A stretch of DNA of 64,000 nucleotides, taken from Kiritimatiellia bacterium. Its GTDB lineage: Bacteria > Verrucomicrobiota > Kiritimatiellia > JAAZAB01. The stretch is taken from assembly GCA_028718125.1 (NCBI GenBank), contig JAQUMN010000017.1, positions 8,401-72,400 of the forward strand. Direction: 5' to 3'. The notes beneath the pieces are model-generated. The model had not been told where the DNA came from and did not search any database. It worked only from the letters and a program-made list of their open reading frames with translations. Positions 12,153 through 34,632 of the stretch are shown piece by piece. The stretch's first letter is position 1; every line of letters begins with the position of its first letter. A program made the position numbers and the translations under genes.

Positions 12153-12180
12153 AAAAATGCCATGCGGGCAATGTTTCGGC

Positions 12181-12290
12181 ACGGCTGTGTCATCCATGCC
12201 AAAACCAGCGGCGGCGCGGAGCTCCTCCCTCCAATATCGCGAAAACATTGGCATTCATGGAGGGTCGAGCTCCCGCGAGACCGTTCTTGA
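12181..12290 (-). repeat. Interspersed repeat family 2, copy 2 (inverted orientation, ~50 bp internal deletion)
   Basis: Reverse complement of the family-2 consensus: 'ACGGCTGTGTCATCCATG...GGCATTCATGGAGGG...GCGAGACCGTTCTT'. Confidence 0.65.
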
Positions 12291-12407
12291 CGCAGCCCTG
12301 AATGTTCCGGTTTCGTTTCTTGTTTTTTATGGCGATTTTGCGTTGAATAAGGTAATATATATCCAACCATGAAACCGCACACAAGGCAAATGGGAGCCGG
12401 CCCCGAC

Positions 12408-13715: not shown

Positions 13716-13853
13716 CGCCGGGCGGGCGCCGGATGAAGGCAACGCTCGCGCAGGTTGCGCCGGGCGCGGAGGCCGCCGGCCGGCGCGGGAGATTTTGCGG
13801 ACCCGGCAACGGGCTGCGGCCAATCCGGCGCCCAACCCGCGGCACCGCCGCGC

Positions 13854-16811
13854 TCAAGCGAATATGATCGTTCCCAGGCGGGCGGTATCGTTGCGATAGT
13901 CATAGCCCTGGCACCACGCGCCGAAGGTGTTAATGCCCGCCGCCGGATTGGAGAGCACGTTGACCCGCCAGACGTCGTGGCGTTTCGGCTTGCCGCCGAG
14001 CTGGGACCATGGAATCACCACGTCGATTCGCCAGCTTGTATCGGTGTGCTCGAAGTGCGCGTGATACCCGGGGATTGGCTCCGGTGTGGTCATTTCCGAC
14101 AGGGTGCCGGACCGGTCGCGGAACAGCCGCCGTATTCCGCCTTTGCCCTCGTAAAAAATGCGGTAATCGAACACGCGCTCGCCCGTGTTGCCGGCGTCGA
14201 TAAAAATCTCCATGAACTCGTTCTGCTGGACCGTGCCGCGCTTCTGTTCCCAGGTGGCCCGGCGCCGGGCGAAGTTGATGTCGAACTCCCGCAGCGCCAG
14301 CTTCAGTCCGGCGCCGGTGTGCGTGATGCGCAGTTGCGTGTGAACGTCGCGGTCAAAATTAACCCGCCGGAAAAACGACGCGAAATCTTCAAGCGACGAT
14401 TCTCCCCAGCGGTAGTGCTGGTCGTGCACCATGGCGCGGAAACCGGAGTCGCGCCCGACGGCGTCGTCGGCAAAACATTGCATGGCCGGCGGGGTCGCCC
14501 CGTCGATCTCCGCCCGGACGTAATTGCGCCATGCCCGCACGTTGTCGTAATACACCGCGAGCTTCGCCGAGTTCGCCAGCTTCGCCAGCGCTTGTTCGGC
14601 CGCGGCCAGCGACGCCTTCAGCAGCTTCAGGTTGCGCGCCATGATCGGCCCGCGCACCGAGACATAGGGGCGGCTCATGCGGCGGATTTCGTTATAGCGT
14701 TCATGCGAACCCAGATACGCGGTCAGGGCCGCGGCGGGATAATCGGCCTTGGACGCGGCGAGAATCGCGGTGATGGCGTCGGCATCCTTTTGCGGCTGCC
14801 AGCGGGCGTGGAAGTTGGGCATGCAGAAATCGTCGGTCGCATGCAGATGCGGGCCCAGGACGTTGATGGCGTCCAGCAGGATAGACCGCGCGTTCGCCAG
14901 GTGCCTGCGGAACGCCGCCTTGCTGCCGGCAAAATAGCAGGCGCCCAGTTCGCGCGCGACGGCGATCTCGCGCCAGATGCGCTCCCCGCGCCGGCAGTTT
15001 TGGGCGACCGCGCCGATCAAGGCCTTGTCGGCCCCGGGGCCGACGAGCTGCCGCAGCCGTTTGACCGCCGCTTGCGACGCGGCGATATATGTCTGCAACT
15101 GCCGGATCATGTACCGCGGTCCGCGCGCCGCCTTCCGTTTAATCGCGGGATTAACCGAATCGATCGGGGCCTGCGTGTCGTCCGGCACGACCTTGGTCAC
15201 CTTGTCGCGCACAACCCATGTGCGCCAGCGCACGTTCGGGCGGATCGCGCCGAAGCGGTTCATGAACGACATCGGGTAGTAGAAAAAAGGCTCCTGGTAA
15301 TGCGAGAAGCGCCCGGGATGGAATCCACCCTCGGCGGCCGAGCCGTAACAGAACTGCTGGTAGCCCAGGAGCACGATCTGGCTCGATTTGAAAATCGCAT
15401 CGCGAATGGCCCGGCCCGCCGCCGGCGTTGTCCCGAACCAGGCCGCATAGCGCTGGGCCCATGCCTGCGGCGCGGGTGCTTCGCCGCGGACGTAATCGAC
15501 GACGGCCTCAACGTGCCCGCGGTTCATGCGCGCGTGAGACTGCAGCCATTTCCGGAAGATCGTTTTGCCCGGAAGCGCGTCCAGCAGCAGTTCGTGGCTC
15601 GACTGGCAGGAAATCGAGTCGGCGCCCCTGGCCTCGATGCTGGCCAGCAGGGCCTGGATGTAGGCCGGATCGGTCCATAGTTTCTGGGTGATATTCGCCG
15701 CGCAGTTGTGGCACGGCCCGAGGCTGAAGGTAAACTCCACTTCCGGCATGGCCTTCTTCCACACGGCCACCCGCGCGTCGGCGACGGGATAGAAATAAAA
15801 ATCGCTCGTGTCGTGGCTCTTGTGCACCAGGGCCTTGGGGCCCCGGTAGCTGCGCAGCAGTTGCGTCATGCCCGCGACATCCGACACCCCCCAGAGGCGG
15901 AAGAAAAGCACCGGTTTTTTTGCGAGCGCGTTCGCCACCCGCACCAGCGTCTTCTGCATGTACGGCACCGCGTTGCCCGACGATTCGAAGTTGATGTAAT
16001 ACCCGTCCAGTTCCGGCAGCACCTCGCGCGTGCGGCGATATATATAGCGGTTGTATTCTTCAACCACCGGGTGCTCGAAATTCGCCAGGAGGCTGCCGCG
16101 CGCCGATATCCCCAGTTTCAAATGGTCCGCCAGCGCCTGCGTGAAGTGCGTGGCGTAATGGTGCAGGAAAGTGCGCAGCCCGTACTTCTGCGCCCAGCCA
16201 AACAGGCGGCGCAACGCCGCGCGGGTTAGCTTGCGCTCGGCGGCGGGAATATGCGTCGCGTGCGCGAACCCCGCGTAGTCCAAAAAAAATTCGAACGGAT
16301 GATACCCGCAATAGACGACAAAACCGTTAAAGTGCCGCGCGGCCAGTTCCTGGAAAAACGCCTCCATTAACCGGTCCGTATACCCGCCCAGCCATGGCGG
16401 CGCATTCGGCGGCGCGGCGCCCACGCGCAGGTTCACTTCGTGCTTGTAGTTGCGCGACTTGAATTTAAGCGTGCATGCAAAATCTTCGAACTTGCCCGCC
16501 GCCGTCCGCCGGGCCAGCTCCAGCAGCGCGCCGATCGTGCCGGTGGCGGTGGCCGCGTCAATCGTGACGTTCTGTTCCGTCCACGCGACGGCGAACGCGT
16601 CGCCGGCCGGCTTATCCGGCGTTCTGAATATTAAGCGGCGCTTGCCCAGCGTGAAATTCCCGGCGTCTTGGACCATGCCCGGGACCCGCCCGGCCGCCCA
16701 GCGCACGCCGTGCGCTGCCGGGCCGAACCGTTGTTCCAATAGTTTGCTCTTTGCCATGGCATCTCCTCCTCTTTTAGCGGAAGCGGGCTTGCCGCCGGAT
16801 TGCAGGTTCAA
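13854..16811 (-). CDS. Large conserved hypothetical protein (985 aa), possible glycoside hydrolase-like catalytic core plus C-terminal carbohydrate-binding-like domain; no signal peptide
   Basis: Long ORF with a protein-like composition. Start uncertain: 'MAKSKLL' at ~16760 is plausible. The antisense ORF 13755..15680 is taken to be a GC shadow. Confidence 0.5.
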   Translation of the reverse strand: MNLQSGGKPASAKRGGDAMAKSKLLEQRFGPAAHGVRWAAGRVPGMVQDAGNFTLGKRRLIFRTPDKPAGDAFAVAWTEQNVTIDAATATGTIGALLELARRTAAGKFEDFACTLKFKSRNYKHEVNLRVGAAPPNAPPWLGGYTDRLMEAFFQELAARHFNGFVVYCGYHPFEFFLDYAGFAHATHIPAAERKLTRAALRRLFGWAQKYGLRTFLHHYATHFTQALADHLKLGISARGSLLANFEHPVVEEYNRYIYRRTREVLPELDGYYINFESSGNAVPYMQKTLVRVANALAKKPVLFFRLWGVSDVAGMTQLLRSYRGPKALVHKSHDTSDFYFYPVADARVAVWKKAMPEVEFTFSLGPCHNCAANITQKLWTDPAYIQALLASIEARGADSISCQSSHELLLDALPGKTIFRKWLQSHARMNRGHVEAVVDYVRGEAPAPQAWAQRYAAWFGTTPAAGRAIRDAIFKSSQIVLLGYQQFCYGSAAEGGFHPGRFSHYQEPFFYYPMSFMNRFGAIRPNVRWRTWVVRDKVTKVVPDDTQAPIDSVNPAIKRKAARGPRYMIRQLQTYIAASQAAVKRLRQLVGPGADKALIGAVAQNCRRGERIWREIAVARELGACYFAGSKAAFRRHLANARSILLDAINVLGPHLHATDDFCMPNFHARWQPQKDADAITAILAASKADYPAAALTAYLGSHERYNEIRRMSRPYVSVRGPIMARNLKLLKASLAAAEQALAKLANSAKLAVYYDNVRAWRNYVRAEIDGATPPAMQCFADDAVGRDSGFRAMVHDQHYRWGESSLEDFASFFRRVNFDRDVHTQLRITHTGAGLKLALREFDINFARRRATWEQKRGTVQQNEFMEIFIDAGNTGERVFDYRIFYEGKGGIRRLFRDRSGTLSEMTTPEPIPGYHAHFEHTDTSWRIDVVIPWSQLGGKPKRHDVWRVNVLSNPAAGINTFGAWCQGYDYRNDTARLGTIIFA

Positions 16812-16927
16812 CTGCGGCCCGGCGGGGCGCCACGCATCCTGTGCAAAGCCGCCCGTTTTCCAGGCTGTGTCGATGCATCAATCATTTGCTTCGCAGCTCG
16901 GTGTCTGCCGGCCGGGGTGCCGGCTGC

Positions 16928-19567
16928 TTAGAAATAAAGGGTTATTTCGGCCTTGCCCGCGAAGGGCGCGATGCGCACGGTTTCACTGGCCGCGTCATAG
17001 ACGCCGCCTTGCGCCCTGACGGCCCGGCGCCCCTCGGGATGCGGCAGGCGCAGCAGCACGGTCTTGGGTTTGCGCCCTCCGTCGCACTTCACCTGCGCGC
17101 TGATCCGGTTGCGGCCAAGCTGCGATTCGACCGCGAGCGTCAGCGGCCCGAAATAGGTGGCCACCTGGTCGAGCCGGACGGTTTGACCGTCCGCGAGCCA
17201 TGCGCGCGGGATGGCGCTTAACAGGCGCAAGTCATTGCCATCCTCCAGCCAGAGCATCCAGCGCGTCTGCATCAGGAACCAGGCCTGTTCATGGGTCTTG
17301 TGTTCGCTGGCGTGATGGTAATGTTCCCAGAATGTGTAGGTCTCGCGGTCCTGCAGCGCGGTGATCTGGTTGTAATAAGTTTTGAGGAACGCCGCGACCT
17401 CGCCGCGCCGGATATGCGCATAATCATGCCGGCAGTAATAAGGCTGGCTCAGCGCGGCGTTTTCCAGGGTCACGGGATATTGATTGGTCTTGAGCATGAA
17501 CTTCGCGCCGATTTCAGCGGGATCGAGCGCCTCGCTGATGACCAGCCACAGCGGGCCGGTCAAACAACTGCGCGCAGCGAAGGCGCCATGGGTGAACCAA
17601 TTGCCGCCATCGGCATAGAAACTGATCCCGCCGGTATATTCCACCCACGGCGGCATGAGCGGCGCCCAGGAGCCGTCGGCCAGCGGTATGAGCGGCGCGC
17701 GCGCCTGCGCGTGATAAAACCCGGCGCGAATGTCTTTTAAATATTCCGGCAATTCGCCCGCGAGCATCCGGGCATATTCCGGATCAACATCGCGCAGGAT
17801 TTCCGCCACGCGCTTCAGGCCGACATAAGTGCCGGCATTCAGGAAAAAAGAGTGATAAAAATCGTTGCAATCGGCCACCTTGCCGTTGACCATGCCGTAA
17901 AATCCCTTGGCGCGGTATTCCTCCAGCTTGTTGCGTTCCCGCCATTGCAGGAGGTAATCGGCGGCTTTCCTGATGTTAGGCAGTACGCGCTTGAGCCAGG
18001 CCGCATCGCGCGTATAGCGGAAATGCTCGCCGGCGGTCCAAAGCAATGGGCCGGTCTCGCTTTCATACTTGCCGAAGTTCTGAATGAACCCGTCGGGCCG
18101 CTGGCGCACGAAGAAGAAGTCAAGGCAGCGCTCGGCTAATTTGTGCCAGCCCATGGAATCGAAGAATTGAATAATCGGCGCGCTTTCGGTCCCGATGGGC
18201 GCGTACCAGCCGATCGTGGCCAGCACCGGCCCATCCGGCTCGCGTCCCAATGCCACGAGGTCGCAGTGTAACAGTCCTGCCTGGATGTTCTCCTGAATCG
18301 GCTTTTCCGGCACGGTAATTTTTGCTGCCGAGGCCAGGCGCGCGCGCCAATATTCGCGGCAGGCATCCAGATGTGCGTTAAAATCCAGTTTCAGCAAGGC
18401 TTGGGCGCGCGCCGCATCCAGGGGCGAGTGCGGGATCAGGATGTCGAATTTCACGGTCTGGCCCGGTTGCAGCAAAACAGCCATTTCCTCTTCCGGCAGG
18501 GCCTGGTCGTCAAGCCGGTTGACGGCATAAACCGTGCCGGCGGATTCCAAGACGGAAAAGCCGTTCTTGAATTGATGTTTATCCGGCGTCGCACGCCCGG
18601 GAAAACCGCATATGTGCCCGGCTTTGAACCAGGCATAGCGCGGCGTCTTGCCGGTGTTGACGGCTTCCACGCGCAGGCAACAGACAACTTCCTGCTCGCG
18701 CTGCCGCATCTCGGCTTGTAGCCGATCATACATTGCCGTTTTTTGTTCAGCGGTCAGCATATTGCCGCCGGCATTGGCATAGCAAGCATCCCACTCCGAT
18801 CCGCGGACGGCGTCCGCGCTGAGCGGTGCTTTTTCCAGCGAGGCAAATAGAACGAGATTGTAATGGACATCCTGCTCGACCTGGGTGGAGCGTAAAATGG
18901 GCAAGACGCCATCTTCCTGGCGCCGTGTGATTTGCGGGCGGCAGGAAGTCCCCTGGCCGATTTCAAAATTCACCTGGTAGGCCGTGGGGGGAGTGCGTTC
19001 CATTATCGGTGTCCGGCTTACGGGAATATATTGCGGGATGCTGTGATAACATGGTTGAATCTGTCCCCAATATTCGTAGCGTTCCTGATATCCCACGCGA
19101 AACATGCGCATATCGCGGCCAAGTCCCAGCCAGGTCGAACAATATTGCCTGCGATTCAAGCGCGCCGCATGGGCGTAAGATTCTTCCGGAGCGTTGTCAA
19201 ACCGCGTGAAGTCGGAAATCAAGCCGCGGGCGGCAACATCTCCGGCTACCTGCGCATAATCGCGCGCGTCACCTCCGGGAACCACCGCCGCCTGGAATTC
19301 CGGAATAAAAACGGGAGTGGCGGAATTGACGTCGCGCAAATTGAAGGCAAACGGATTTTCATCCGTAACGACATTGCAGATTGTCGGGAACGCCCCGCAT
19401 TTCAAGGTGAATTCCGAAAACGAAATTTCCAGCCGCCCGCCCTGCGGCAACTGGAAGCGATTTTCGGCGCTATTGCCGCCTGGCGCATGCAAACGCCCGA
19501 CTTTCCCGTTGCGCGCCATGATCGTGCCGTTGACATTATTCCGGCCGAACAATACTGTGATCTTCAT
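16928..19567 (-). CDS. Large hydrolase-like protein, paralog 1 (probable (alpha/alpha)6 six-hairpin glycosidase-like), cytoplasmic
   Basis: About 880 aa and roughly 60% identical over its full length to 25158..27782 (e.g. 'GWYAPIGTESAPIIQFFDSMGWHKLAERCLDFFFVRQRPDGFIQNF'). Start placed at 'MKITVLF'. Confidence 0.55.
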   Translation of the reverse strand: MKITVLFGRNNVNGTIMARNGKVGRLHAPGGNSAENRFQLPQGGRLEISFSEFTLKCGAFPTICNVVTDENPFAFNLRDVNSATPVFIPEFQAAVVPGGDARDYAQVAGDVAARGLISDFTRFDNAPEESYAHAARLNRRQYCSTWLGLGRDMRMFRVGYQERYEYWGQIQPCYHSIPQYIPVSRTPIMERTPPTAYQVNFEIGQGTSCRPQITRRQEDGVLPILRSTQVEQDVHYNLVLFASLEKAPLSADAVRGSEWDACYANAGGNMLTAEQKTAMYDRLQAEMRQREQEVVCCLRVEAVNTGKTPRYAWFKAGHICGFPGRATPDKHQFKNGFSVLESAGTVYAVNRLDDQALPEEEMAVLLQPGQTVKFDILIPHSPLDAARAQALLKLDFNAHLDACREYWRARLASAAKITVPEKPIQENIQAGLLHCDLVALGREPDGPVLATIGWYAPIGTESAPIIQFFDSMGWHKLAERCLDFFFVRQRPDGFIQNFGKYESETGPLLWTAGEHFRYTRDAAWLKRVLPNIRKAADYLLQWRERNKLEEYRAKGFYGMVNGKVADCNDFYHSFFLNAGTYVGLKRVAEILRDVDPEYARMLAGELPEYLKDIRAGFYHAQARAPLIPLADGSWAPLMPPWVEYTGGISFYADGGNWFTHGAFAARSCLTGPLWLVISEALDPAEIGAKFMLKTNQYPVTLENAALSQPYYCRHDYAHIRRGEVAAFLKTYYNQITALQDRETYTFWEHYHHASEHKTHEQAWFLMQTRWMLWLEDGNDLRLLSAIPRAWLADGQTVRLDQVATYFGPLTLAVESQLGRNRISAQVKCDGGRKPKTVLLRLPHPEGRRAVRAQGGVYDAASETVRIAPFAGKAEITLYF

Positions 19568-19591
19568 TACATCTCCCTGTATTTGCACTGT

Positions 19592-20419
19592 TTATATCCT
19601 TTGCAGCACCCATGACAACCCCTGCTTATCGTGAAGCGGCGAGTCATGATCGCCGCCAGGGATTTCATGATAGAAAAAGTTTTTTTTATCACGCAACAGT
19701 TCTGCCAGGATGCGCGACTGCTCCACGGGAATGATTCGATCGGCACCTCCATGCGTCAGATAAACCGGCATAGCAAGCCGGTTGACGTTGGCTTGAGCGG
19801 AGTGGCGGCGATAAATTTCCGGCGCATGGTCGGGATCGGCGCCGTAGGCCGTGAGGATGGCATCGGCAATTTCGCGCAGGATCGGCAGGGTTTGCGTTGT
19901 GCACCACCGGTAATAGCTGCCCACGTCGGACGCGACCCCCCGCGCCACAATTCCGGCGACGTCGCCCGGATATAAAACGCCGTAAATTAAATTGCCGGTT
20001 CCGCCCATTGACCCGGAGCAAAAAATAGTTTTTTGCATGCCGAATTCCGCGCGTAAAAAATCCAGAACGGCATGCATGTCGGCTGCAGCCGCCGGACACA
20101 TCCAGGCGTTGTCGCGCAAATTCAGGGTTATGATGCCGGCTCCGGTGTCCAGAAAATCCGGCAGCCATTTTTCGCGCACATCGCGCCGTGTATAAAGCTG
20201 GTCGCCGTGCGAGCCGTGTCCATGCAGCACCACGGTCCAAAGCTCGTGCCGTTTACCCGGCCGCAACAGGGCCCAATCCGGCGCGTCATCCACAGCGCTC
20301 GCATAATCCAGACGCTGCATACCTGCAGGAAAAAACGCGCCGGATACCGGCTGTAATTGCAAAATTTTAATTTTGTGTATCTTCCCTGCGTGGTTATTTT
20401 GCCATTCCGGCATTCTCAA
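19592..20419 (-). CDS. Alpha/beta-hydrolase (esterase/peptidase S9-like), paralog A
   Basis: GxSxG elbow 'GSMGG' and a conserved 'HGGADRIIP' near the C-terminus. Paralogous to 22547..23365 and 23368..24204. Confidence 0.65.
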   Translation of the reverse strand: MRMPEWQNNHAGKIHKIKILQLQPVSGAFFPAGMQRLDYASAVDDAPDWALLRPGKRHELWTVVLHGHGSHGDQLYTRRDVREKWLPDFLDTGAGIITLNLRDNAWMCPAAAADMHAVLDFLRAEFGMQKTIFCSGSMGGTGNLIYGVLYPGDVAGIVARGVASDVGSYYRWCTTQTLPILREIADAILTAYGADPDHAPEIYRRHSAQANVNRLAMPVYLTHGGADRIIPVEQSRILAELLRDKKNFFYHEIPGGDHDSPLHDKQGLSWVLQRI

Positions 20420-22013
20420 GAATTTTCCGCATGTTGGCGCCCAACCCGGGGATCAAGTCGGCATCCGGCAGCGGCATGGAAAGGTAGCGCCCAAGTTCCC
20501 AGGCCTGATCGTGCGCGGCGGTATCGGAGCCGAACAAAACGCGGTTTTTGCCGACCAATTGCAGCGAGGTTTCGAACGGCCGCGGCGTGGTGAAAGTACC
20601 GCAGAATTCCAGATAAACGTTTGGGTGCGCCTGGGCCAAGGCCTCGGCTTCCAGGCGGCCTGCGGTGCCGCCGCCGGAATGTCCCAGGATGAACGTTGCG
20701 TGCGGATATTGCATCACAATATCCTTTAACAGTGCGGGTGAATTGTATTTGTCATCCCAGGTATGCAGCAGAATCGGCCGTTGATGCCGGTCCGCATGTT
20801 CCCATACCGGCTGGTAACGCGGGTCGGTGGCGGGAATCTTCCAATAGGATGGCAGCAGTTTGAATCCCACAAAAAAACCGCGCTGGAAAAACTCGTCCAG
20901 CCGGGGGATCATCTCCCCGGCATATAACGGATTGAAAACCAGGTAACCCGAAAACCGGTCGCCGTGCTTTAACAGGATATCTTCCACCTCGCGATTGCCT
21001 CGATAGTTTTCGCCAAACAAGGCGGCTTCGGGAGAAAGGATCAGGCGCCGGACGCCCAAGCGATCCATCTGGGCAATCAGGGCGGCAATCCCGCTTTGGT
21101 AATCTTGCTGCCGGATGACCCATCCGCGCGTATGCGGCGGCGAATGGCCATGGGCATCAATGATTTCAACGTCCTTAATCGGCTTGCCTTCGCGCAAAAC
21201 ATTCCACAGCGGCTTTTGTTGCAGCAGCGCCGGGGGCCGGGTTATTTTCCCTGTGAGCGGGTCAAGCTTCAACAGGCGCTCGATATTGCCGTGCGCAATC
21301 TCATCGCGCTGGGCATCATCCAGCCGCGCATGCATGAGGGCGGCAATGGCGGCGCCGTAGTGCGATTTATAACCAATGCCGAAAAGCACGCGTGTGGCGC
21401 CGAAATTTTCGGTCAGAAGTTCAATTGTGTCGCGCATATGCAGCCAGGAAGTATCCACATAGACATTCGGACAGCGCCACATCAGGTCCAGGACGCTGCC
21501 GAACCCGCCCCACATTTTTTGGGTTATCACGAAGGAAATTTGCGGGAAGGTCCGCGCCAGGTGTTCCATGTCGCGGATGTCCAGCTCGTCATGGCCATGC
21601 CGGCAATCCCAGAACAGCGCCGGCTTGAATTGCGCCAGCTCGGAGAGCACCCGCTCAATCTCGCGGATCGGAAAGCGCGACATGTCCGGGGTGATGCGCA
21701 GGGCCCGCACCCGGCCTGCGCCAAATTGCGCCCGCAGAAAATCCGAAATTCCGTTTTCAAAAAAACAAGCCGGGGTGACGATAAACGTCGGCAAAAGGCG
21801 TTGTTCCAGGCCCGCCTCCGCGATTTCCTGCAGCAAACGCCGGTTGCCCAGCATGGGATTAAGATCGCGCGCCGCGACATGCCACACGAGCGAGCGGTCA
21901 ATCCCTAGATAATCCAAATGCGCCGCAAACGATGCCGCCGTTGGAAACTGGGGCTCCTCATAAGCGCCGCGCCCGATATGGCCATTGACATTGAACAAAG
22001 ACAGGTTTTTCAT
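20394..22013 (-). CDS. Amidohydrolase-2 family protein (two tandem metal-dependent TIM-barrel hydrolase domains)
   Basis: 539 aa with 'HxH...H...D' style motifs repeated in the N- and C-halves ('IDAHGHSPPH', 'ILGHSGGG'). Confidence 0.6.
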   Translation of the reverse strand: MKNLSLFNVNGHIGRGAYEEPQFPTAASFAAHLDYLGIDRSLVWHVAARDLNPMLGNRRLLQEIAEAGLEQRLLPTFIVTPACFFENGISDFLRAQFGAGRVRALRITPDMSRFPIREIERVLSELAQFKPALFWDCRHGHDELDIRDMEHLARTFPQISFVITQKMWGGFGSVLDLMWRCPNVYVDTSWLHMRDTIELLTENFGATRVLFGIGYKSHYGAAIAALMHARLDDAQRDEIAHGNIERLLKLDPLTGKITRPPALLQQKPLWNVLREGKPIKDVEIIDAHGHSPPHTRGWVIRQQDYQSGIAALIAQMDRLGVRRLILSPEAALFGENYRGNREVEDILLKHGDRFSGYLVFNPLYAGEMIPRLDEFFQRGFFVGFKLLPSYWKIPATDPRYQPVWEHADRHQRPILLHTWDDKYNSPALLKDIVMQYPHATFILGHSGGGTAGRLEAEALAQAHPNVYLEFCGTFTTPRPFETSLQLVGKNRVLFGSDTAAHDQAWELGRYLSMPLPDADLIPGLGANMRKILENAGMAK

Positions 22014-22110
22014 GAAAAATCCTGAATATCATACGTATGCGTGCTTTGCAAGCAATCCGATAAATTCCAAGTTCCACAATCAAAATTCCAGGGAATATTC
22101 AAATTCTAAT

Positions 22111-22310
22111 TAAATGCATAGGAATTTTCCGCCGGAGGCGGATCCGCCTATGACGGACAATCCGTCTTTGTTGTCATTCCGAGCGTAGCGAGGAATCTCG
22201 CCGCGAGAGATCCCTTCGACTTCGTTCAGGGCAGGCTCTTCATTGCGTTCAGGATGACAATCCGAACAGAATAAAAGTCGCCCCGCCTTGCGGGGCCTAA
22301 TTTGAAAAAA
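22111..22310 (+). repeat. Interspersed repeat family 1, copy C; an inverted partial copy of its 5' module lies at 22436-22492
   Basis: Near-identical to copies A and B. The downstream inverted 'GATAGGAAACAGGAATTTTTCCGCCCTGGCGGATGCGCACAGGCGGAAC' (rc) resembles the element's 5' end. Confidence 0.75.
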
Positions 22311-22546
22311 TGAATCCTGGTTTTATTTCTGTTTTGTTCCCTTTGCCTTAATCGATTGCATTTCCTTGGAATTTGAAACTTGGATTCGGGAGTTTCGGCC
22401 GTGTGACCGATCCTAGCCCATTCCATATCCGTGCCATCCGTAGTTCCGCCTGTGCGCATCCGCCAGGGCGGAAAAATTCCTGTTTCCTATCGCAGATCAC
22501 TATCCTTTCGTTGCTTCTGTGCGCTCTGCCTGCTCTCCGCGCCTTA

Positions 22547-23365
22547 TCATGACCGGATGCGCAACGTATCCAGGTCGATGTCCACCCAGAGGGCCGAATC
22601 ATGATTGCCCTGCGGTACCTCGTGGTAGACAAAATTTGGCTTTCCTTTCATGGCGGCGGCGATCTTGCGTGTTTCCACAACCGGGATCAGGGGATCGTTT
22701 CCGCCCATAGTGAGAATGATCGGCATGGTCAATTTGTTGATATGGGCCAATACGGAGCGCTCTTCGTACAGGTGTGGTTTTTCCTCCGGCGTTCCGCCGT
22801 AAGCGCTAAAGACGGTTTTTGTAAGCTCTTGGAGCACCGGCTTATTGCTGTTGCGTGCGAAATCCAGCCGCTGGAGGATGTCGCACATGCCCATGGCAAT
22901 GACCCCGTGAATGTTTTCCGGATGGATCACGGCGTAGGCCATGGCGCTGGAGGCCCCGCCCGAGCCGCCCAGCAATACGATATTCACGCATCCCAGTTTG
23001 TTCCGCGCGTAATCAAGCAAATCGGTCATGTCCGCTGTTACCGCCGGGTTCATGTAGGCGGTGCCCCGCATATTGAGCGACAGAAGAGGATGGCCGCCGT
23101 TCATTATCCGGGTAAGCCAGAAGGCGCGGACATCCTTGCGCGTAAATATCTGGTCAGCGTGTGAAAATGATCCGTGCAGGTAGACAATCGTATTCCTACG
23201 CTTATCACCGGGCAGGAAGAGCGCCCAGTCCTCTGCACCGTCGAAGGTGCTCTTGTACGTCAGCCGTATCGTCCCCGGCGGGTACTCGGCTCCGGCAACC
23301 GGCTGCGTGGATACGGCAATCATTTGCTTGCCCGCTTTCTGCTCCATAGCAATGGCCTTATTCAC
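22547..23365 (-). CDS. Alpha/beta-hydrolase, paralog B
   Basis: 'LLGGSGGAS' nucleophile elbow and 'MGGNDPLIP'. The N-terminus is similar to paralog A. Confidence 0.65.
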   Translation of the reverse strand: MNKAIAMEQKAGKQMIAVSTQPVAGAEYPPGTIRLTYKSTFDGAEDWALFLPGDKRRNTIVYLHGSFSHADQIFTRKDVRAFWLTRIMNGGHPLLSLNMRGTAYMNPAVTADMTDLLDYARNKLGCVNIVLLGGSGGASSAMAYAVIHPENIHGVIAMGMCDILQRLDFARNSNKPVLQELTKTVFSAYGGTPEEKPHLYEERSVLAHINKLTMPIILTMGGNDPLIPVVETRKIAAAMKGKPNFVYHEVPQGNHDSALWVDIDLDTLRIRS

Positions 23366-23367
23366 TT

Positions 23368-24204
23368 TTAGTTCTGTTCCCGGCCGCTGTTTCCGTATGC
23401 CTTGAAAATGAATTCAAGGGCCTGGGTGGTGTCTTCGTAGTTGGTTGTGTGTCCGGTGTCCTTGCGGTCAATCAACAGTGCTTCCCGCTTCATTGCCCGC
23501 AAGCGCTCCGCCAAACGACGGACGCTGTCCGGCGGGACGGATGTATCCTTGCCGCCCACGGTGAAGGCAACCGGCATGGTGAACTTGTCCGGAACCAGTT
23601 CCGGACTGCGTTTCCGGTATTCTTCCGGTTGCTCCTGCTTGTTGCCGCCGTATGCGACGGCAATTGCTGCCTGGAAGTTCAGATAATCCAGCATGTTGGC
23701 CGTGCCGTTTTGCGCACTGATCCCGGCCACCAGTTCGGGGTGCAGCGCGGCAAAAATCAGTGCCGAAGTTCCGCCCATGGACCCGCCCGCCAGGAAAACC
23801 TTGCGGACGCGGTGCTTGTTGCGGAGCAAGGCAATGATCTGCAACAGGTCGGCCTCGGCTTTCGGCCCCATCCACGAAGTGGATGCCCGGTAGTCCGGCG
23901 ACACCATGATCATCGCGTGCCGGGCGGCAAAATCGCGAACCGCCTTGCACTCGCTACGCTCATCCTTGATGTATTGCCAGCGATCGGAACCATGCCCATG
24001 CAAGGCGATCACGACGTCGTAAGGCATGGATGGCCGGAAATCTTTGGGGAGTATTTCCACGTAACGTTGCGCGGTCCCGTCCACGTCAGCCTTGAACTCC
24101 ACGTCCACAGGCTTCCCAGGATCGCCCGCCGTGAGGGAGGTCCCGATTGGGGCCTTTGAGCCGAAAATGGTCATAATAACAGACCATGATAGCGCTAATT
24201 TCAT
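23368..24204 (-). CDS. Alpha/beta-hydrolase, paralog C
   Basis: 'LAGGSMGGTS' elbow and 'VGGKDTSVP'. Only 2 nt separate it from paralog B. Confidence 0.65.
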   Translation of the reverse strand: MKLALSWSVIMTIFGSKAPIGTSLTAGDPGKPVDVEFKADVDGTAQRYVEILPKDFRPSMPYDVVIALHGHGSDRWQYIKDERSECKAVRDFAARHAMIMVSPDYRASTSWMGPKAEADLLQIIALLRNKHRVRKVFLAGGSMGGTSALIFAALHPELVAGISAQNGTANMLDYLNFQAAIAVAYGGNKQEQPEEYRKRSPELVPDKFTMPVAFTVGGKDTSVPPDSVRRLAERLRAMKREALLIDRKDTGHTTNYEDTTQALEFIFKAYGNSGREQN

Positions 24205-24211
24205 AATAAAA

Positions 24212-25024
24212 TCAGTCCTTCAGGTGCGTCAGCGTCCGGCGCAGGCTTTCGGATGGTTCCAGCGTCGGCGTGTATTCCAGCGCGAAAATGCCCTTGTAGC
24301 CCATGGCTTCAATCTGGCGGACCAGGAAAGGATAATTGGTTTCGCCCAGCCAGAGCTCGTGCCGGCCGGGATAGCCCGCTGAATGAATATGGCCGATCAC
24401 ATCCAGGTTTTTGCGGATGTGGCCGGTCAGGTCGCCTTCCATGATTTGCATGTGGTAGCAATCGAACAGCAATTTCATGCGCGGCGAATTGACTTCGCGG
24501 CACATGGCGGCGCCCTCGTCGGAGCTGGTCAGGAAATAATTGGCATGGTCCACCTTGTCGTTGAGCACTTCAAGCAACAGCGTGATGTCGGCCTTTTCAG
24601 CCCGCTCCGCCGTGGCTTTCAGGCCATCCAGAACGTTCTTTTGCATTTGCGCGCGCGCGAGGCCCTTGACCAGGTTGCCGGTGCAGATTATCGCGGCGCC
24701 GATATTGGCCTCCTTGCAATATGCCAGCGTGGCATCGGTCTGTTTTAACCATTCCGTGCGGTGGGTGGCATCAGTTAGCCCGCCTCCCAGTTTGCCGTCC
24801 GGAGACCCGATCACAACGTTGGTCATGGTAACCCCGGCTTTTTCAGCGGCGGCGCGGATTTTTGCCGCGCGCTTAAATTTCCTGGCGTCATCCGCGCCCT
24901 TTGCAGGCGCGAGGTCGCCGAACCACATCTCGGCGAATGTAAAGCCAGCATTCGCGGCCAATTGGATGCGATCGAGGAACGGACGATCCGTGAAAACCAT
25001 TTCCAGACAAACGCCATAGTTCAT
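24212..25024 (-). CDS. Hydroxypyruvate isomerase-family protein (xylose-isomerase-like TIM barrel)
   Basis: 270 aa; 'LEMVF...FAEMWF' and 'LLLEVLN...EY' hallmarks of the Hyi/IolE-like family. Confidence 0.6.
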   Translation of the reverse strand: MNYGVCLEMVFTDRPFLDRIQLAANAGFTFAEMWFGDLAPAKGADDARKFKRAAKIRAAAEKAGVTMTNVVIGSPDGKLGGGLTDATHRTEWLKQTDATLAYCKEANIGAAIICTGNLVKGLARAQMQKNVLDGLKATAERAEKADITLLLEVLNDKVDHANYFLTSSDEGAAMCREVNSPRMKLLFDCYHMQIMEGDLTGHIRKNLDVIGHIHSAGYPGRHELWLGETNYPFLVRQIEAMGYKGIFALEYTPTLEPSESLRRTLTHLKD

Positions 25025-25157
25025 TGCATGCCTCCTTTTTTTATTGTTAGGAATTTCAAAATCACGCGGCTACAGTAGAAACTTTTCAGAATGTAACTAC
25101 CACTCGGTTGGGGCGTCTGCAAAGTTAACCCGTTCCTCGGGGCTTAATTTAATCTGA

Positions 25158-27782
25158 TCAGAAATATATTACCACATCAGCCTTGCCCTTGAAGGGCGTG
25201 ATGCGCACCGTTTCATGTTTTGCGTCGTAAACGCCGCCTTCAACTTTTATGGCTTTGCGTCCTTCGGGATGCGGCACACGAATAAGCACTGTCTTCGGCT
25301 TGCGGTTGCCGTCGCACTCCACGTGGGCGCTAATCCGGTTGCGGTTAAGCTGCGATTCGACGGCGAACGTCAGCGGCCCGAAATAGCTGGCCACCCGGTT
25401 TAGCCGGATTGCTTGGCCGTCCGCGAGCCATGCGCGCGGGATGGCGCTTAACAGGCGCAAGTCCTTGCCATCCTCCAGCCAGAGCATCCAGCGCGTCTGC
25501 ATCAGAAACCAGGCCTCTTCGTGGGTCTTGTGCTGACTGGCGCCAAGGTAATGTTCCCAGAATGTGTAGGTTCCCCGGTCTTGGAGGGCGGTGAATTGAT
25601 TATAGTAAGTTTTGAGGAACGCCTTGACTTCACCGCGCTTAAGGTGGATGTAGTCATGGCGGCAATAGTAGGGCTGGCTCAAGCCGGCATTGCGCACAGT
25701 CATCAGTGCCTGGTGCGACTTCAGCGGGAATTCCGTGCCAAGCTCATTCGCATCGAGCACCTCCGAAATAACCAGGTACAGGGAGCCGATAAGCGAGTCC
25801 CGTCCGCTGAATGTTCCGTGGGTGAACCACTTGCCGCCCTCGGCATAAAGCGCCAGCGCCCCGGGGTATTCGGTCCAGGGCGGCGCCGATGAAACCCATG
25901 TCCCGTCCCCGATGGGAACAACCGGCGACCGGGCAAGGGCCTCGTAAAAAGCCGCCCGGATATCCTGCTTGAACTCGCGCGCTTCCCGGGCCAGGCGCCG
26001 GGATGCTTGCGGATCGATGTTAGCCAGCATTTCCGCAACACGCTGGATGCCGACATAAGAAAGGCCGTTCAGCATGAAGGAATGGAAAAAATCCTGGGGG
26101 TCGGCGACCTTGCCGTCAAGCAACCCGTAACCCTTGCCGCGCAGTTCCGGCTTCTTGTTCCGTTCCCGCCAGGCGAGCAGGTATTCGCAGGCCTTGAGCA
26201 GGTTCGGCCGGATTCGCTTCACCCAGGCAATGTCGCGGGTGTAGCGGAAATGTTCGCCCATGGTCCAGAGGGCCGGCCCGGTTTCCAGTTGATACCCGTT
26301 AAAATTCTGGATGAAACCATCCTCCCGCTGGCGGTTGAAAAAAAACTGTAACGCGCGCTCGGCCAGGTGATGCCAGCCCATCGAATCGAAAAACTGGATG
26401 ATGGGCGCGCTTTCCGAGCCGATCGGCGAGTACCAGCCGATCGTGGCCAGCGCGGCGCCATCCGGCTCCTTGCCAAGTGTGGTAATGTCGCAGTGCAACA
26501 GGCCCGCCTGGATGCGTTCGTTGATCGCCCGCTCCGGGACGTGGATTGATGCGGCAGCGGACAGCTTGGCGCGCCAGAATTTCCGGCAGGCATTGAGGTG
26601 TGCGTCAAAATCGAGCTTGGACAGTTTGGCGGCGCGCGCGCGCGGCAGCGGTTGATGGGGAATCAATATTTCAAATATGGCTGTCTCCCCCGGCTGGAGC
26701 AGAACCGCCATTTCCTCTTCGGGCATGGGCGCGCCATTGAGGCGATGGATGGCGAACACGCGTCCTGATTCCAGGATGCCATAGCCGTTTGCGCTTTGAT
26801 AGCCCGCCGGTTTAAGCAGACGCGCTCCATAGAAAGACCCGCCTTTGAACCATGCGTATTGCGGAGTGCGCTCCGTGTTCACCGCCGCGATGCGGATGAC
26901 ACAGACTGTTTCCTCGTCGCGCGCGCGCATTTCAGCGCGCAATAGATCCTTAAGTTTCTCCCGTTCCTCCGGCGTAAGCATGTTGCCGCCGGTATTGGGA
27001 TAACATGCGGTCCATTCGGAACCGCGCACGGCATTGGCCGAGAGCGGGCGATTTTCCAGGGTACAGAAGACGGTAAGATGATAATGGACATTTTCTTCGC
27101 GCTGCGTCGAGCGCAGGATGGGCAGGACGCCATCCTCCAGGCGCCGCGTGATGTCATACCGGCAGGAATTGCCCGGGCCAACCACGAATCCGATACTATA
27201 AGGCTTGTCGCCCGATTCCGGAATATTTTGAAGCGTGGAGTGATAGCGCGGCTGGACATATCCCCAGTAACCCAATTTGGGGTCGTAGCCTACTTCGAAA
27301 AAACGCATGTCGCGGCCAAGTCCCAACCAGGTAGGACACATCAGGTCCCGATTGCCGCGGCAGGCATTTTCGTAAGTTTCCTCCGGCTCCAGCTCGATTT
27401 GTTGAGATTTGCCTACAAAGCCCAGTTCGCGAATTTCCGCTTCGATTTCGGTATAAGATCGCCGATCAGCAGCTTCCGTGATCATGACGCCGTAGGCAGG
27501 AATATAGATCGGATGATCCCGGTTGATATCCCGCACAAAGCATGTGAACGCGTGCGGTTTGCCGGTAACGGTCAGACGGGTGGCAAATGCCCCGGCCTTC
27601 AATTGGGCATCGGCTATCCGGCATTCCAGCCGCACGGGACCTTTAGCCTGAATCCTGCCTTTTCCCGAAACGCGCCCCTTGCCTTGGACAATCCGGACTG
27701 ACTGTAATTGCCCATGCACAACGGTCAGTTCCGCTTGCACCGGCCCCGATTGCCACTCAAGGGCAATACATTTGGTTTTCAT
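25158..27782 (-). CDS. Large hydrolase-like protein, paralog 2
   Basis: Paralog of 16928..19567. Start placed at 'MKTKCIALEWQ' (27780-27782), immediately after the upstream gene's stop. The longer track ORF would overlap that gene by 134 nt. Confidence 0.55.
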   Translation of the reverse strand: MKTKCIALEWQSGPVQAELTVVHGQLQSVRIVQGKGRVSGKGRIQAKGPVRLECRIADAQLKAGAFATRLTVTGKPHAFTCFVRDINRDHPIYIPAYGVMITEAADRRSYTEIEAEIRELGFVGKSQQIELEPEETYENACRGNRDLMCPTWLGLGRDMRFFEVGYDPKLGYWGYVQPRYHSTLQNIPESGDKPYSIGFVVGPGNSCRYDITRRLEDGVLPILRSTQREENVHYHLTVFCTLENRPLSANAVRGSEWTACYPNTGGNMLTPEEREKLKDLLRAEMRARDEETVCVIRIAAVNTERTPQYAWFKGGSFYGARLLKPAGYQSANGYGILESGRVFAIHRLNGAPMPEEEMAVLLQPGETAIFEILIPHQPLPRARAAKLSKLDFDAHLNACRKFWRAKLSAAASIHVPERAINERIQAGLLHCDITTLGKEPDGAALATIGWYSPIGSESAPIIQFFDSMGWHHLAERALQFFFNRQREDGFIQNFNGYQLETGPALWTMGEHFRYTRDIAWVKRIRPNLLKACEYLLAWRERNKKPELRGKGYGLLDGKVADPQDFFHSFMLNGLSYVGIQRVAEMLANIDPQASRRLAREAREFKQDIRAAFYEALARSPVVPIGDGTWVSSAPPWTEYPGALALYAEGGKWFTHGTFSGRDSLIGSLYLVISEVLDANELGTEFPLKSHQALMTVRNAGLSQPYYCRHDYIHLKRGEVKAFLKTYYNQFTALQDRGTYTFWEHYLGASQHKTHEEAWFLMQTRWMLWLEDGKDLRLLSAIPRAWLADGQAIRLNRVASYFGPLTFAVESQLNRNRISAHVECDGNRKPKTVLIRVPHPEGRKAIKVEGGVYDAKHETVRITPFKGKADVVIYF

Positions 27783-27792
27783 GAGACTCTGA

Positions 27793-29112
27793 TTACACCT
27801 TGGCCAGCACCTTGTTAATGCCCTCGGCAATGGCGCGGCAATCCGCGGCGGAATAATTGGCGCTGATGCCGATACTGACCACCCGCGAGAGATAATCGAG
27901 CGTCTGCGGGCACATATCCGGCGCATAAGCCGGCAGTTCCGACTTCTTTACGCCGCTCCAGGGCAGCCCGTCCGGGGCGACCGCTTTCTGTTCCATGATA
28001 TGGTCCCAGTGCGTGTAAATGTGCCAGTTCTTGATCTTGGCGTCGTAAATGCCGCCGGCCGGGACGCCTTCGGCCACCATGGCCTTCGTGGCCCACTTGG
28101 TTTTTTCCACGTCAGGCATAAACATCACCAGGGTCGTGCCGACAACGCCGTCAGGATCGGACAAACGCTGGAGCTTGACACCCCGGGGCAACTCCAAGGC
28201 GTTCATGATTCGTCCGAATGCCGTGCGGTAGCCCTTGACAATCTTGGCGGCCTTGCGGATTTGCGCCAGGGCCACCGCCCCCTGCAGTTCGCTCATGCGA
28301 TAATTTTCGCCGCAGAAAAGCTCGCCCTCGCGCCGTTCCGAGGCGAACCGGTTCGGGCGCCAGCAAGCGGCGCAATCGTGCCAGGACTGCGCGCGGGTGT
28401 GGAGCCACTCGTTGCTGGTCGTGATGAAGCCGCCTTCGCCGCTGTTCAAAACCTTGTAATAGTCAAAGCTGAAACAGCCGATTGTGCCGATGCTGCCCAG
28501 CATTTTGCCGCGATAGGATCCGCCCGCCGCCTGGGCCACGTCCTCGATCAGCGCAATCTTATTTTTGTCGGCCAGCGCTTTCAGTTCGGCCATCTGGGCC
28601 GGAAGCCCAAGCATATGCACGACGGCGATAGCCTTCGTGCGCGGCGTGATCCGTCGCGCGACATCTTTCGGGTCGAGGGTCAGCGTGTCATCCACGTCGG
28701 CGATCACGGGGATGGCGTTGCAGGCGCCCACCGCGGCGGCCGTGGCAAAAAACGTGTAGGCCGGCACGATGACTTCGTCGCCCATGCCGACGCCCACGGC
28801 CCGCATGGCGGCAATCAGGGCCGAGGTGCAGGAGTTAACGGCCAGGCAGTAGGGAACACCAATGTATTTGCCAAACGCCTTTTCGGCCGCCTCCACTTTG
28901 CTCGGGCGCGGGTTGTAATAGCGGAAGAGATGCGGCCCCTTGATATCCTTGGCCGATTTGCGAATGGCTGTCTCAACCGTTTTGCGTGCGGGCGCCGGGA
29001 GTTCCCAGAGATCGAGCACTTCCAGCAGTTCGTCCACGTGAATCTTGGTGGGGTGGGGCCCCATTTTACCAACAGCCTTTGCGCCGCCTTCGATGGCCAG
29101 TTGCTTGCTCAT
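27793..29112 (-). CDS. DegT/DnrJ/EryC1/StrS-family PLP-dependent sugar aminotransferase/dehydratase
   Basis: 439 aa. 'AVNSCTSAL', 'DEVIVPAYTFFAT' and 'SFDYYKVL' (PLP-lysine region) are characteristic. The SD 'GGGAGA' sits 8 nt upstream of the ATG. Confidence 0.8.
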   Translation of the reverse strand: MSKQLAIEGGAKAVGKMGPHPTKIHVDELLEVLDLWELPAPARKTVETAIRKSAKDIKGPHLFRYYNPRPSKVEAAEKAFGKYIGVPYCLAVNSCTSALIAAMRAVGVGMGDEVIVPAYTFFATAAAVGACNAIPVIADVDDTLTLDPKDVARRITPRTKAIAVVHMLGLPAQMAELKALADKNKIALIEDVAQAAGGSYRGKMLGSIGTIGCFSFDYYKVLNSGEGGFITTSNEWLHTRAQSWHDCAACWRPNRFASERREGELFCGENYRMSELQGAVALAQIRKAAKIVKGYRTAFGRIMNALELPRGVKLQRLSDPDGVVGTTLVMFMPDVEKTKWATKAMVAEGVPAGGIYDAKIKNWHIYTHWDHIMEQKAVAPDGLPWSGVKKSELPAYAPDMCPQTLDYLSRVVSIGISANYSAADCRAIAEGINKVLAKV

Positions 29113-29124
29113 GGTGTGATCTCC

Positions 29125-29187
29125 CGATTTCCGATTTCTAATTTCTAATTTCTAATTTCTAATTTCTAATTTCTAATTTCTAATTTC
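29125..29187. repeat. Heptanucleotide microsatellite: 7 perfect AATTTCT units plus degenerate flanking units (GATTTCC, GATTTCT at the 5' end; AATTTCA at the 3' end); fills the divergent aminotransferase/AraC promoter region
   Basis: Read directly. It begins 13 nt from the aminotransferase start codon and ends ~25 nt before the AraC ORF. Confidence 0.9.
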
Positions 29188-29213
29188 AACCTACTCTATT
29201 TCGCTGGGTTAAA

Positions 29214-30236
29214 ATGGCAATGGACGGGCAGGTAAATTATTTGTATTATCTTGCAATGGCTAAACAAGCGATTGCTGCGAATGCGAAGGGGTATGGTTGG
29301 ACTTGGCTGACGGTGCCGGCGGAGATGCCTGTGCTGGTCAACGCGACTCGCGCGGTTGGGATGGCGTCGCATTCGAGCCGGGGTGTCCGGCACAGCAATC
29401 CATACTGGGTGCTTGATTACAGTTTATCGGACTTGGGGTTGTTCAAGGTGGGACGGCGGACGGCTCCCTGGCTTCGTCATGCGGCCGGCGAAGCCCTGTT
29501 GTATCCGCCGCATACGCCCTACTGGGAGGACATGAGTTCAGTCAAGCCGCCGATTCGCAATGCCTGGCTGATGTTCTGCGGCGGTCCGGGCGCGGGTCTG
29601 GATACGCTGGTGAGGAGCGCGGCCGGCTATGCGCGATTTGTAGATCCCGAAGGCCGCTTGGGGCGTCTGATTGAGCAGGCGGCTGAAGTCGGGCAGCTTG
29701 AAGGGGACGGCGGTTTCTGGAAGGCCATGGGATTATTGTGCGAGGCTCTGGATTTGCTGCGGCATAGTGTGCCGATCAATGTTGATACCTACCGGATCCC
29801 GGCGACTATTTTGCCGGAGACGCCGACGCTGGCCACGGCAGTAACGGCCTACCTGCGCGAGCATATGGCCCAACGTCTTTCGCTGGGGATAATGGCGGGG
29901 CATCTGCATGTCAGCGTCTCGACGCTTTCGCATAGGTATCGCGCCGAAACGGGCGAGTCGCCGATCGCCACGCTCATTCGCCTGCGTATTCAGCAGGCCC
30001 GGAATCTCTTGATGAAAGGCCAGCGCCTTAAAACGATTGCCGCAACGCTCGGCTTCAGCGACGTCTATCACCTTTCCAAAATGTTCAAGCGCGTGGAAGG
30101 CCGCTCTCCCCGTCAATTTGTGAAAGCGATCAATGCGCCGCCCGGTCCGCAGCGCCCGGCTGCCGCGCGTGCAGGTCGTGTATGCGCAAGCGCGGGAAGC
30201 CCGCAGACGACCCGGGATCGCCGCCGAATTTTGTGA
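29214..30236 (+). CDS. AraC-family transcriptional regulator
   Basis: C-terminal AraC HTH ('IATLIRLRIQQARNLL...IAATLGFSDVYHLSKMFKRVEGRSPRQF'). The N-terminal domain is ligand-binding-like. The start could instead be 29259. Confidence 0.8.
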   Translation: MAMDGQVNYLYYLAMAKQAIAANAKGYGWTWLTVPAEMPVLVNATRAVGMASHSSRGVRHSNPYWVLDYSLSDLGLFKVGRRTAPWLRHAAGEALLYPPHTPYWEDMSSVKPPIRNAWLMFCGGPGAGLDTLVRSAAGYARFVDPEGRLGRLIEQAAEVGQLEGDGGFWKAMGLLCEALDLLRHSVPINVDTYRIPATILPETPTLATAVTAYLREHMAQRLSLGIMAGHLHVSVSTLSHRYRAETGESPIATLIRLRIQQARNLLMKGQRLKTIAATLGFSDVYHLSKMFKRVEGRSPRQFVKAINAPPGPQRPAAARAGRVCASAGSPQTTRDRRRIL

Positions 30237-30309
30237 ACCGAATGTGTGCCACGAACCACTTGGAACAAAAATACGACGAAGGAAGTAGACAATCATCATA
30301 GGAGGCGCC

Positions 30310-31488: not shown

Positions 31489-31611
31489 AACAGGAAAACA
31501 AAACCGGTTGGATAGTCGCTCATAGGTAACAGTTAAACAAGCGATCGTGAAGCTAACTGTTACATGAAAAATCGGCACGTTTTACGTGCAGGTGGCGGGA
31601 AGTGACGCTTT

Positions 31612-33263: not shown

Positions 33264-33537
33264 GACTGCAAAAAGAATGCGGGATTCAGCGCCGATTTAC
33301 AAACATTTTTAGTAACTACCGAACTACCCGCAATTGTTAACTACGAAACACGCGAAAATCGCGAAAGATACTCCTGCAAAGCGCAGGAGGATTGGTAGAC
33401 CTCCAAACAGGTCCCGACTATTCGACAGCTTTTCTTCTTAAACAGAATTCCTGTTCCCATTTTCGTGCCTTTCGCGTATTTCGTAATTTTCTTCCCTGAT
33501 GGCAGGCGCTGCGTAGTTGACGTTTTTATTCAGGGGC

Positions 33538-34416: not shown

Positions 34417-34632
34417 AAAGCCATACAATAAACGTATTGGCCGCAAAGGGACACAAAAAAATTCAAGAGTTGGAGTGGCCGAAAAGCTGATTGCCCTGCC
34501 TGACCGCCAAAAATTCTCGCTATGGCGCAACCATGTCGCTATGTTTAACAGACACATCAGGCTCGGTGCTTTGCCGGGTGCAGGCGCCCATTGAAAGTGG
34601 CGTGGAAAAGACAACAACCAGATAGAAGGAAA

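Follow-up and report, generated by a model that had tools for sequence, protein, structure and literature searches.

The question raised by this locus is why a bacterium carries, 5.6 kb apart, two large and clearly related genes that match no named enzyme family, and what their products might do. The locus lies in a stretch of 64,000 nucleotides (hereafter the window; contig JAQUMN010000017.1, positions 8,401 to 72,400 of the forward strand) from a Kiritimatiellia bacterium represented by a metagenome-assembled genome (MAG; GCA_028718125.1). The two genes, here called A (16928..19567, minus strand, 879 aa) and B (25158..27782, minus strand, 874 aa), encode proteins without signal peptides. We think it probable, with some room for doubt, that A and B belong to one family with the six-hairpin fold, within which they separated long ago, and that they are cytoplasmic enzymes cleaving glycosidic bonds, encoded in two side-by-side units under an AraC-type regulator. 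On this reading the window holds two such units, and not one gene duplicated in place.

Both open reading frames (ORFs) are found on the minus strand at these coordinates, contain the peptides quoted in the initial annotation of the window, and coincide with deposited gene models of the same Kiritimatiellae MAG: B with PHW60_08585 (P0001 in our set; 874 aa, 100% identity) and A with PHW60_08555 (P0075; 879 aa). The longer ORFs listed by the program (886 and 922 aa) are upstream extensions of A and B, and that of B would run into the preceding aminotransferase gene. The two genes are separated by 5,590 bp. BLASTP alignment of the proteins yielded 509 identities over 854 positions (60%; 73% positives, 11 gaps, 1067 bits, E=0), spanning residues 26-879 of A and 32-874 of B, that is, both proteins end to end. 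All three domains contribute to the match, with identity rising from 47% (N-terminal domain) through 67% (barrel) to 74.5% (C-terminal domain), so that the similarity is not limited to an accessory domain. GC content, overall and at third codon positions (GC3), is similar in both genes. At the codon level we obtained a dN of 0.34, a dS of about 1.3-1.4 and a dN/dS of about 0.25. Since dS is near saturation, this ratio shows no more than that the divergence is old and that both copies are under purifying selection. The initial annotation had described two alignable paralogs of about 880 aa and about 60% identity that diverged long ago, and this description holds.

The same annotation had further proposed that the pair arose by tandem duplication inside one operon-like block, followed by sub-functionalisation toward two related substrates or linkages. 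In favour of this origin, A and B are on the same strand, 5.6 kb apart and 60% identical from end to end, and the family is often present in several copies per genome. Against it stands the phylogeny. Neighbour-joining analysis of 83 non-redundant sequences placed A and B in separate deep clades, and the A clade (27 sequences) was recovered in 100% of 200 bootstraps with B outside it. Each of the two clades includes both Kiritimatiellia/Verrucomicrobiota and Lentisphaeria members. Among the best matches of B, 74 proteins from other organisms outscore A (HMMER score), and the identity matrix gives orthologues of up to 83% for A (P0088) and up to 88% for B (P0002), compared with 59% between A and B themselves; the closest orthologues of A are P0088/L009 (82-83%) and L095 (79%). 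In none of the other loci examined (about 140) is a second copy found within 10 kb, and several MAGs hold two family copies on different contigs. Gene order also differs among close relatives: it is DegT-DUF4838-A-TIM in L009, DegT-TIM-B in L006 and DegT-TIM-abh-Amidohydro_2-abh-sulfatase-A in L007, where DegT, TIM and abh stand for aminotransferase, TIM-barrel and alpha/beta-hydrolase genes of the kinds described below, and in one related MAG, CAZYXU, the B-type and A-type genes are about 21 kb apart. The separate deep clades, the closer orthologues elsewhere and the differing gene order all argue against a tandem duplication in place, which we regard as very improbable. A and B instead represent an old paralogy kept in a plastic accessory locus.

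Two of the related loci deserve a closer description. The CAZYXU contig (L006/L093, CAZYXU010000033.1) begins with a B-type gene and, after a stretch of same-strand genes, ends with an Amidohydro_2 gene, an abh3-type hydrolase gene and the N-terminal part of an A-type gene. The A-type piece is 67% identical to residues 1-129 of A, and the intervening genes encode two giant HEAT/CBM4_9/GH42M proteins, a GH20b+NAGidase protein, an FG-GAP protein and unknown proteins. The second locus, L133 (Ga0172380_10004718), belongs to a close relative and is syntenic with window positions 12152-31614 at 80-89% nucleotide identity. There, the 5′ part of the DegT gene is joined to an internal fragment of B; the contig lacks the whole segment that begins with the TIM-barrel gene and extends past A and the 985-aa ORF to include the M48 peptidase gene, and it also lacks the BNR-like gene and most of the AraC gene. 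These remnants reflect either decay of the locus in a sister population or a collapse of the assembly.

A and B are members of a large, unnamed and uncharacterised family that lies outside the sequence families tested (Pfam, NCBIfam and PDB). Against Pfam-A, neither protein gave a match even with the E limit relaxed to 1, and 50 relatives scanned singly at E up to 10 gave only sub-threshold matches to Glyco_hydro_95_cat, in 10 of the 50. The sole match in NCBIfam was a faint one to the glycoside hydrolase family 15 (GH15)-type model TIGR01577 (16.9 bits against a cut-off of 820). Searching PDB sequences with a single sequence returned matches at chance level only (best E 0.13), and a 50-sequence profile returned none. 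That these large enzyme-like paralogs could not be assigned to a named GH family, as had been stated from inspection alone, is therefore confirmed by searches at the sequence level. In a database clustered at 90% the family has more than 1,080 matches, all of them without Pfam domains, and every member bearing a source name is called 'hypothetical'. An exhaustive search recovered 2,905 representatives of clusters at 50% identity with an E threshold of 1e-3, and 613 with a threshold of 1e-30. Literature searches found no paper on a characterised member.

Among GTDB species representatives we found 291 family matches. The best 80 of these all come from MAGs or uncultured-organism assemblies and are distributed over Kiritimatiellia, Verrucomicrobiota, Lentisphaeria/Victivallaceae, Planctomycetota, Bacteroidota, Acidobacteriota, Fibrobacterota and Clostridia; archaea (Bathyarchaeia, Thermoproteota) are also among them (46-85% identity). 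Judging from these lineages, the hosts appear to be mostly anaerobes. Full-length members are present in five Bathyarchaeia and Thermoproteota MAG loci (L048, L050, L053, L059 and L071), at about 49-51% identity to B, and the archaeal members would imply inter-domain transfer. A distant branch of 1,100-1,200-aa relatives has only the barrel and the C-terminal domain in common with the family, and three of the six proteins scanned from this branch carry an N-terminal NPCBM module. Signal peptides are present in some family members, and sulfatases, GH2, GH20, GH84-type and GH109-type proteins, esterases and PIG-L deacetylases are recurrent neighbours across family loci. The NPCBM fusions, the signal peptides in some members and the glycan-type neighbour genes point to a carbohydrate-active role. 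The gene neighbours in Bacteroidota loci are heterogeneous; of the 123 Pfam families detected there, the 25 commonest include no SusC/SusD family, which would be typical of polysaccharide utilization loci.

An AlphaFold2 model of B, built on a 50-sequence alignment, reached a mean predicted local distance difference test (pLDDT) score of 88.2 and a predicted template modelling (pTM) score of 0.90. It consists of an N-terminal beta-sandwich (residues about 1-375), an (alpha/alpha)6 barrel of twelve helices (about 390-770) and a C-terminal beta-sandwich (775-874), and at the level of the fold it belongs to the six-hairpin (alpha/alpha)6 glycosidase superfamily. In Foldseek searches, the highest-ranking multi-domain matches with an N- or C-terminal beta-sandwich are glycosidases and phosphorylases. 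The model thus places A and B in the six-hairpin glycosidase/phosphorylase fold class, with a four-region architecture like that of GH65 and GH95 enzymes.

The closest known kinds of enzyme are GH15 (clan GH-L), GH95, GH176 and the GH65/GH94 phosphorylases, with which the family has its fold and domain order in common. Identity to the GH15 enzymes compared (bacterial glucoamylase 1LF6, Arthrobacter glucodextranase 1ULV and dextran dextrinase 9JU0) is 9-11%. Our family differs from GH15 in its additional C-terminal beta-sandwich, and no WEE-type catalytic motif was recognised in its sequences. Membership of GH15 was rejected, as PF00723 was matched by neither A, B nor the 50 relatives at E up to 10 and TIGR01577 remained far below its cut-off. 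Profile-profile homology was not detected either: hhalign gave a probability of 0.1% and an E of 0.5 when the 50 family sequences were compared with 24 fungal GH15 sequences carrying PF00723, with no bacterial GH15 in the set and both alignments shallow (effective number of sequences about 2.5). The GH95 alpha-L-fucosidases/galactosidases (7KMQ; FucOB, 7ZO0) are the top Foldseek match (E 1e-9) and have the same order of N-terminal beta-sandwich, barrel and C-terminal beta-sandwich, but this order is also common to GH65, GH94 and GH78 and hence is not diagnostic. None of the 50 members scanned exceeds the cut-off of Glyco_hydro_95_cat (PF22124), the weak matches reaching a best E of 0.0044 and A and B giving none.

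The clan GH-G-like family GH176, exemplified by TgAMY (7VMA) and the A8F5 alpha-1,2-glucosidase (bioRxiv 10.64898/2026.07.01.735942), is a further relative in fold. The proteins of our family are longer by about 250 aa and possess a C-terminal domain, and those with a source name are all 'hypothetical', whereas GH176 members carry the annotation glycogen debranching enzyme or amylo-alpha-1,6-glucosidase. No Pfam model for glycogen debranching enzyme was matched by A, B or the 50 relatives at E up to 10, and the profile search of PDB sequences, a set that includes the GH176 structure 7VMA, returned no match. The GH65/GH94 phosphorylases (cellobionic acid phosphorylase, 4ZLE; kojibiose phosphorylase, 3WIQ) are among the top Foldseek matches and have the same four-region architecture of N-terminal beta-sandwich, linker, (alpha/alpha)6 barrel and C-terminal beta-sandwich, as described for GH65 (PMC11442529). 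They differ from our family in that no Pfam or sequence match links the two, and in that some of our family members are secreted. Taken at the sequence level (Pfam, NCBIfam, PDB and hhalign), the family belongs to none of GH15, GH95, GH176 and GH65/GH94, and it probably constitutes a new one.

About 130 positions are invariant among the 50 aligned sequences. In the barrel, the invariant polar residues sit in or near the long loops that join the helices; in B numbering the invariant set includes E457/S458, E500, G553, G557, K558, D561, D564, H655, R661, N698, Q703-P-Y-Y-x-R-H709, W742-E743, K752, H754 and E755. Two loops (553-563 and 697-707) have low pLDDT though they are near-invariant, a combination often shown by mobile active-site loops. 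All invariant acidic and basic residues are common to A and B, as are all the candidate catalytic residues named below. To our knowledge, all of the nearest structural neighbours that are glycosidases or phosphorylases belong to inverting families, and an inverting acid/base mechanism is on that ground the most likely one for A and B. The alpha-glucosidase families compared in a recent preprint are likewise inverting, and GH176 uses D287 as fixer, D427 as acid and E611 as base (10.64898/2026.07.01.735942). In a comparison of loop order and spacing, the conserved D432, D561/D564 and E743 of B are spaced similarly to this triad. By analogy, D432 would be the fixer, D561 or D564 the general acid and E743 the general base, with E457, E500, E510 and E755 as alternative candidates.

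We then compared the two clades through their partner genes, counted across 81 non-redundant loci (26 A-clade, 55 others). Directly upstream of A lies abh3 (19592..20419, minus strand), an alpha/beta-hydrolase gene, preceded in turn by an Amidohydro_2 gene (20394..22013, minus strand, 539 aa), which is the commonest conserved neighbour of A-clade genes. Amidohydro_2 adjoins 12 of the 26 A-clade loci but only 1 of the 55 others (p=1.4e-6), and the figures for the abh3-type hydrolase, a partner specific to the A clade, are 10 of 26 against 1 of 55 (p=2.5e-5). An association of the B clade with DegT and TIM-barrel genes was rejected, being neither significant nor clade-specific. A natural fusion strengthens the link to the hydrolase: in a Victivallales MAG, the 1,107-aa protein P0124 (MBP5637983.1) carries an abh3 homologue (41% identity, E 1e-57) N-terminally fused to a family domain whose motifs are A-type by eye. 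This Rosetta-stone arrangement indicates that the abh3-type hydrolase and the family protein may act sequentially on one substrate. The Amidohydro_2 partner was modelled with a pLDDT of 94 as two tandem TIM-barrel-like halves. Its invariant H288-x-H290, H417, H445 and D497 are all in the C-terminal half, where they possibly form a metal site. Its nearest solved relatives, at about 15% identity, are uncharacterised amidohydrolases and aromatic-acid decarboxylases and provide no clue to the substrate.

Are A and B then simply redundant isozymes, acting on the same substrate and kept for dosage or differential regulation? Wherever both clades are conserved at 85% or more (255 positions), they carry the same residue, and no position discriminates the broad clades at that stringency, as redundancy would have it. 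When narrower clades are compared, however, A and B can be told apart at 21 positions. Most of these differences are conservative, but several lie beside an invariant acidic residue (S456T, L499S, L554M and F566Y). Moreover, the two clades have both persisted across the Planctomycetes-Verrucomicrobia-Chlamydiae (PVC) lineages, where they are under purifying selection; one related MAG has retained a gene of each type; and the specific partners and the fusion of the A clade have no counterpart in B. Redundancy consequently seems unlikely to us. Some functional differentiation is plausible given that A-clade genes have partner genes of their own; as the invariant acidic and basic residues are all shared, the chemistry is probably the same in A and B, the differences between them being subtle and close to the putative pocket, while fine specificity may differ and pathway partners clearly do.

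The nature of this chemistry can be questioned in two ways. A and B could be glycoside phosphorylases of the GH65/GH94 kind, using phosphate instead of water and thereby saving ATP in anaerobes. Their cytoplasmic location, the apparently anaerobic character of most hosts, the GH94 phosphorylases among the top fold matches, the GH65 architecture and the many invariant Arg, His and Lys residues in the barrel loops are all consistent with phosphorolysis. Signal peptides in some members argue against it for the family as a whole, and since some members are secreted we consider hydrolysis the likelier reaction and give phosphorolysis a rather small chance. It is less probable still that the six-hairpin barrel serves another chemistry, be it that of an AGE-type isomerase/epimerase, a lyase or a cyclase, or no chemistry at all. 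Precedent for the last case is provided by the alpha and beta subunits of phosphorylase kinase, in which GH15-like domains act as a non-catalytic scaffold. Yet the top-ranked multi-domain fold matches with beta-sandwich domains are glycosidases and phosphorylases, the roughly 130 invariant positions, acidic residues of the barrel loops included, argue for catalysis, and both the NPCBM fusions and the neighbours (esterases, sulfatases, GH20 and GH84) point to glycans.

In the window, the genes read along the minus strand in the order DegT, B, TIM barrel, est1, abh2, a 533-bp gap, Amidohydro_2, abh3, A and the 985-aa ORF. The first gene of the B unit encodes a DegT/DnrJ/EryC1-family pyridoxal phosphate-dependent aminotransferase (27793..29112, minus strand) and ends 10 bp short of the B start codon. 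Among solved structures its product is best matched by KdnA (5k8b, E 1e-64; the match covers query residues 77-438, nearly the full length), an 8-amino-3,8-dideoxy-manno-octulosonate transaminase whose substrate is a free ulosonic-acid aldehyde, not a nucleotide sugar. B is followed by a xylose-isomerase-like TIM barrel (24212..25024, minus strand), which resembles hydroxypyruvate isomerase and 2-oxo-tetronate isomerase below their curated cut-offs, by the esterase-type alpha/beta-hydrolase est1 (23368..24204, minus strand) and by the alpha/beta-hydrolase abh2 (22547..23365, minus strand), the last gene of the unit. The 533-bp gap carries the strongest terminator-like hairpin of the region (GCCCCGC-AAG-GCGGGGC, 22280..22296, minus strand; seven G-C pairs and a T-rich tail), a match to the consensus of intrinsic terminators. 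This hairpin suggests that the B unit and the A unit are probably two transcription units. The 'one operon-like block' of the initial annotation is therefore right in that the genes lie on one strand, but the gap and its hairpin divide it between the B and A units. Divergent from the DegT gene is that of an AraC-family regulator (29214..30236, plus strand), which recurs at the head of related loci.

We propose that A and B are cytoplasmic enzymes that would cleave a glycosidic bond, most likely by inverting acid/base catalysis. Their substrates would be imported oligosaccharides or glycosides bearing ester groups and possibly amino-sugar or acid-sugar groups. A-type proteins would act together with the Amidohydro_2 enzyme and with the dedicated alpha/beta-hydrolase, which would take off an acyl group either ahead of cleavage or after it. 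In the B unit, the KdnA-like transaminase, the hydroxypyruvate-isomerase-like TIM barrel and the two esterases would process the released sugar, and the AraC-type regulator would govern both functional units.

Other features of the window were recorded. The 985-aa ORF downstream of A (13854..16811, minus strand, probable start M19) has no match in Pfam, NCBIfam or PDB sequences, and none of the first 92 related loci searched contains a homologue. This ORF, an 863-aa neighbour in L005 and the DUF4838/CBM9 protein of L009 were considered as third paralogs and rejected, being dissimilar to A, to B and to each other. The minus-strand ORFs at 12327-13835 are shadows of the plus-strand M48 peptidase gene. 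Most of the 100-bp intergenic region between the divergent AraC and DegT genes is occupied by a perfect tandem array of the heptamer ATTTCTA (7.7 copies, after two copies of CCGATTT; 29124-29187), which could provide regulator binding sites or a slippage-prone promoter spacer. Adjoining the AraC gene, a 392-aa protein (30310-31488, plus strand) weakly matches BNR_2, a sialidase-like beta-propeller; such a protein was not found beside family members in the related loci searched. Further along are a run of metal-uptake genes (31612-42930), comprising ZnuABC-like (31612-34656), Nramp (35838-37271), FeoB (38587-40293) and CbiM/PDGLE (41887-42930) genes, and, at 45154-49695 on the plus strand, an isocitrate/isopropylmalate dehydrogenase gene and an ATP-citrate-lyase-like pair, the first with ATP-grasp/citrate-binding domains and the second with CoA-ligase/citrate-synthase domains.

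A paralog pair is by itself ordinary, multi-copy GH-like families being common. The interest of this one lies in the unannotated family to which it belongs, in the coupling to an esterase and in the spread over bacteria and archaea: about 2,900 clusters and 291 GTDB matches, archaea included, are without annotation despite a confident glycosidase-like fold and a place in glycan-degradation neighbourhoods of anaerobes that have been little studied. More tentatively, and short of an even chance in our estimate, the family may be a new GH family of GH-L/GH-G-like six-hairpin fold with at least two functional subfamilies, one of them coupled, and in Victivallales fused, to an esterase together with the double-barrel Amidohydro_2 enzyme. 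It might then provide a hitherto undescribed cytoplasmic deacylation-plus-cleavage route for a decorated glycan or glycoside in anoxic habitats, common to PVC bacteria, Bacteroidota and Bathyarchaeia. The A/B pair and the natural esterase fusion are material for studying how specificity diverges, and the assignment of an activity would add a CAZy family and sharpen the annotation of carbon cycling for Kiritimatiellia, Lentisphaeria and Bathyarchaeia.

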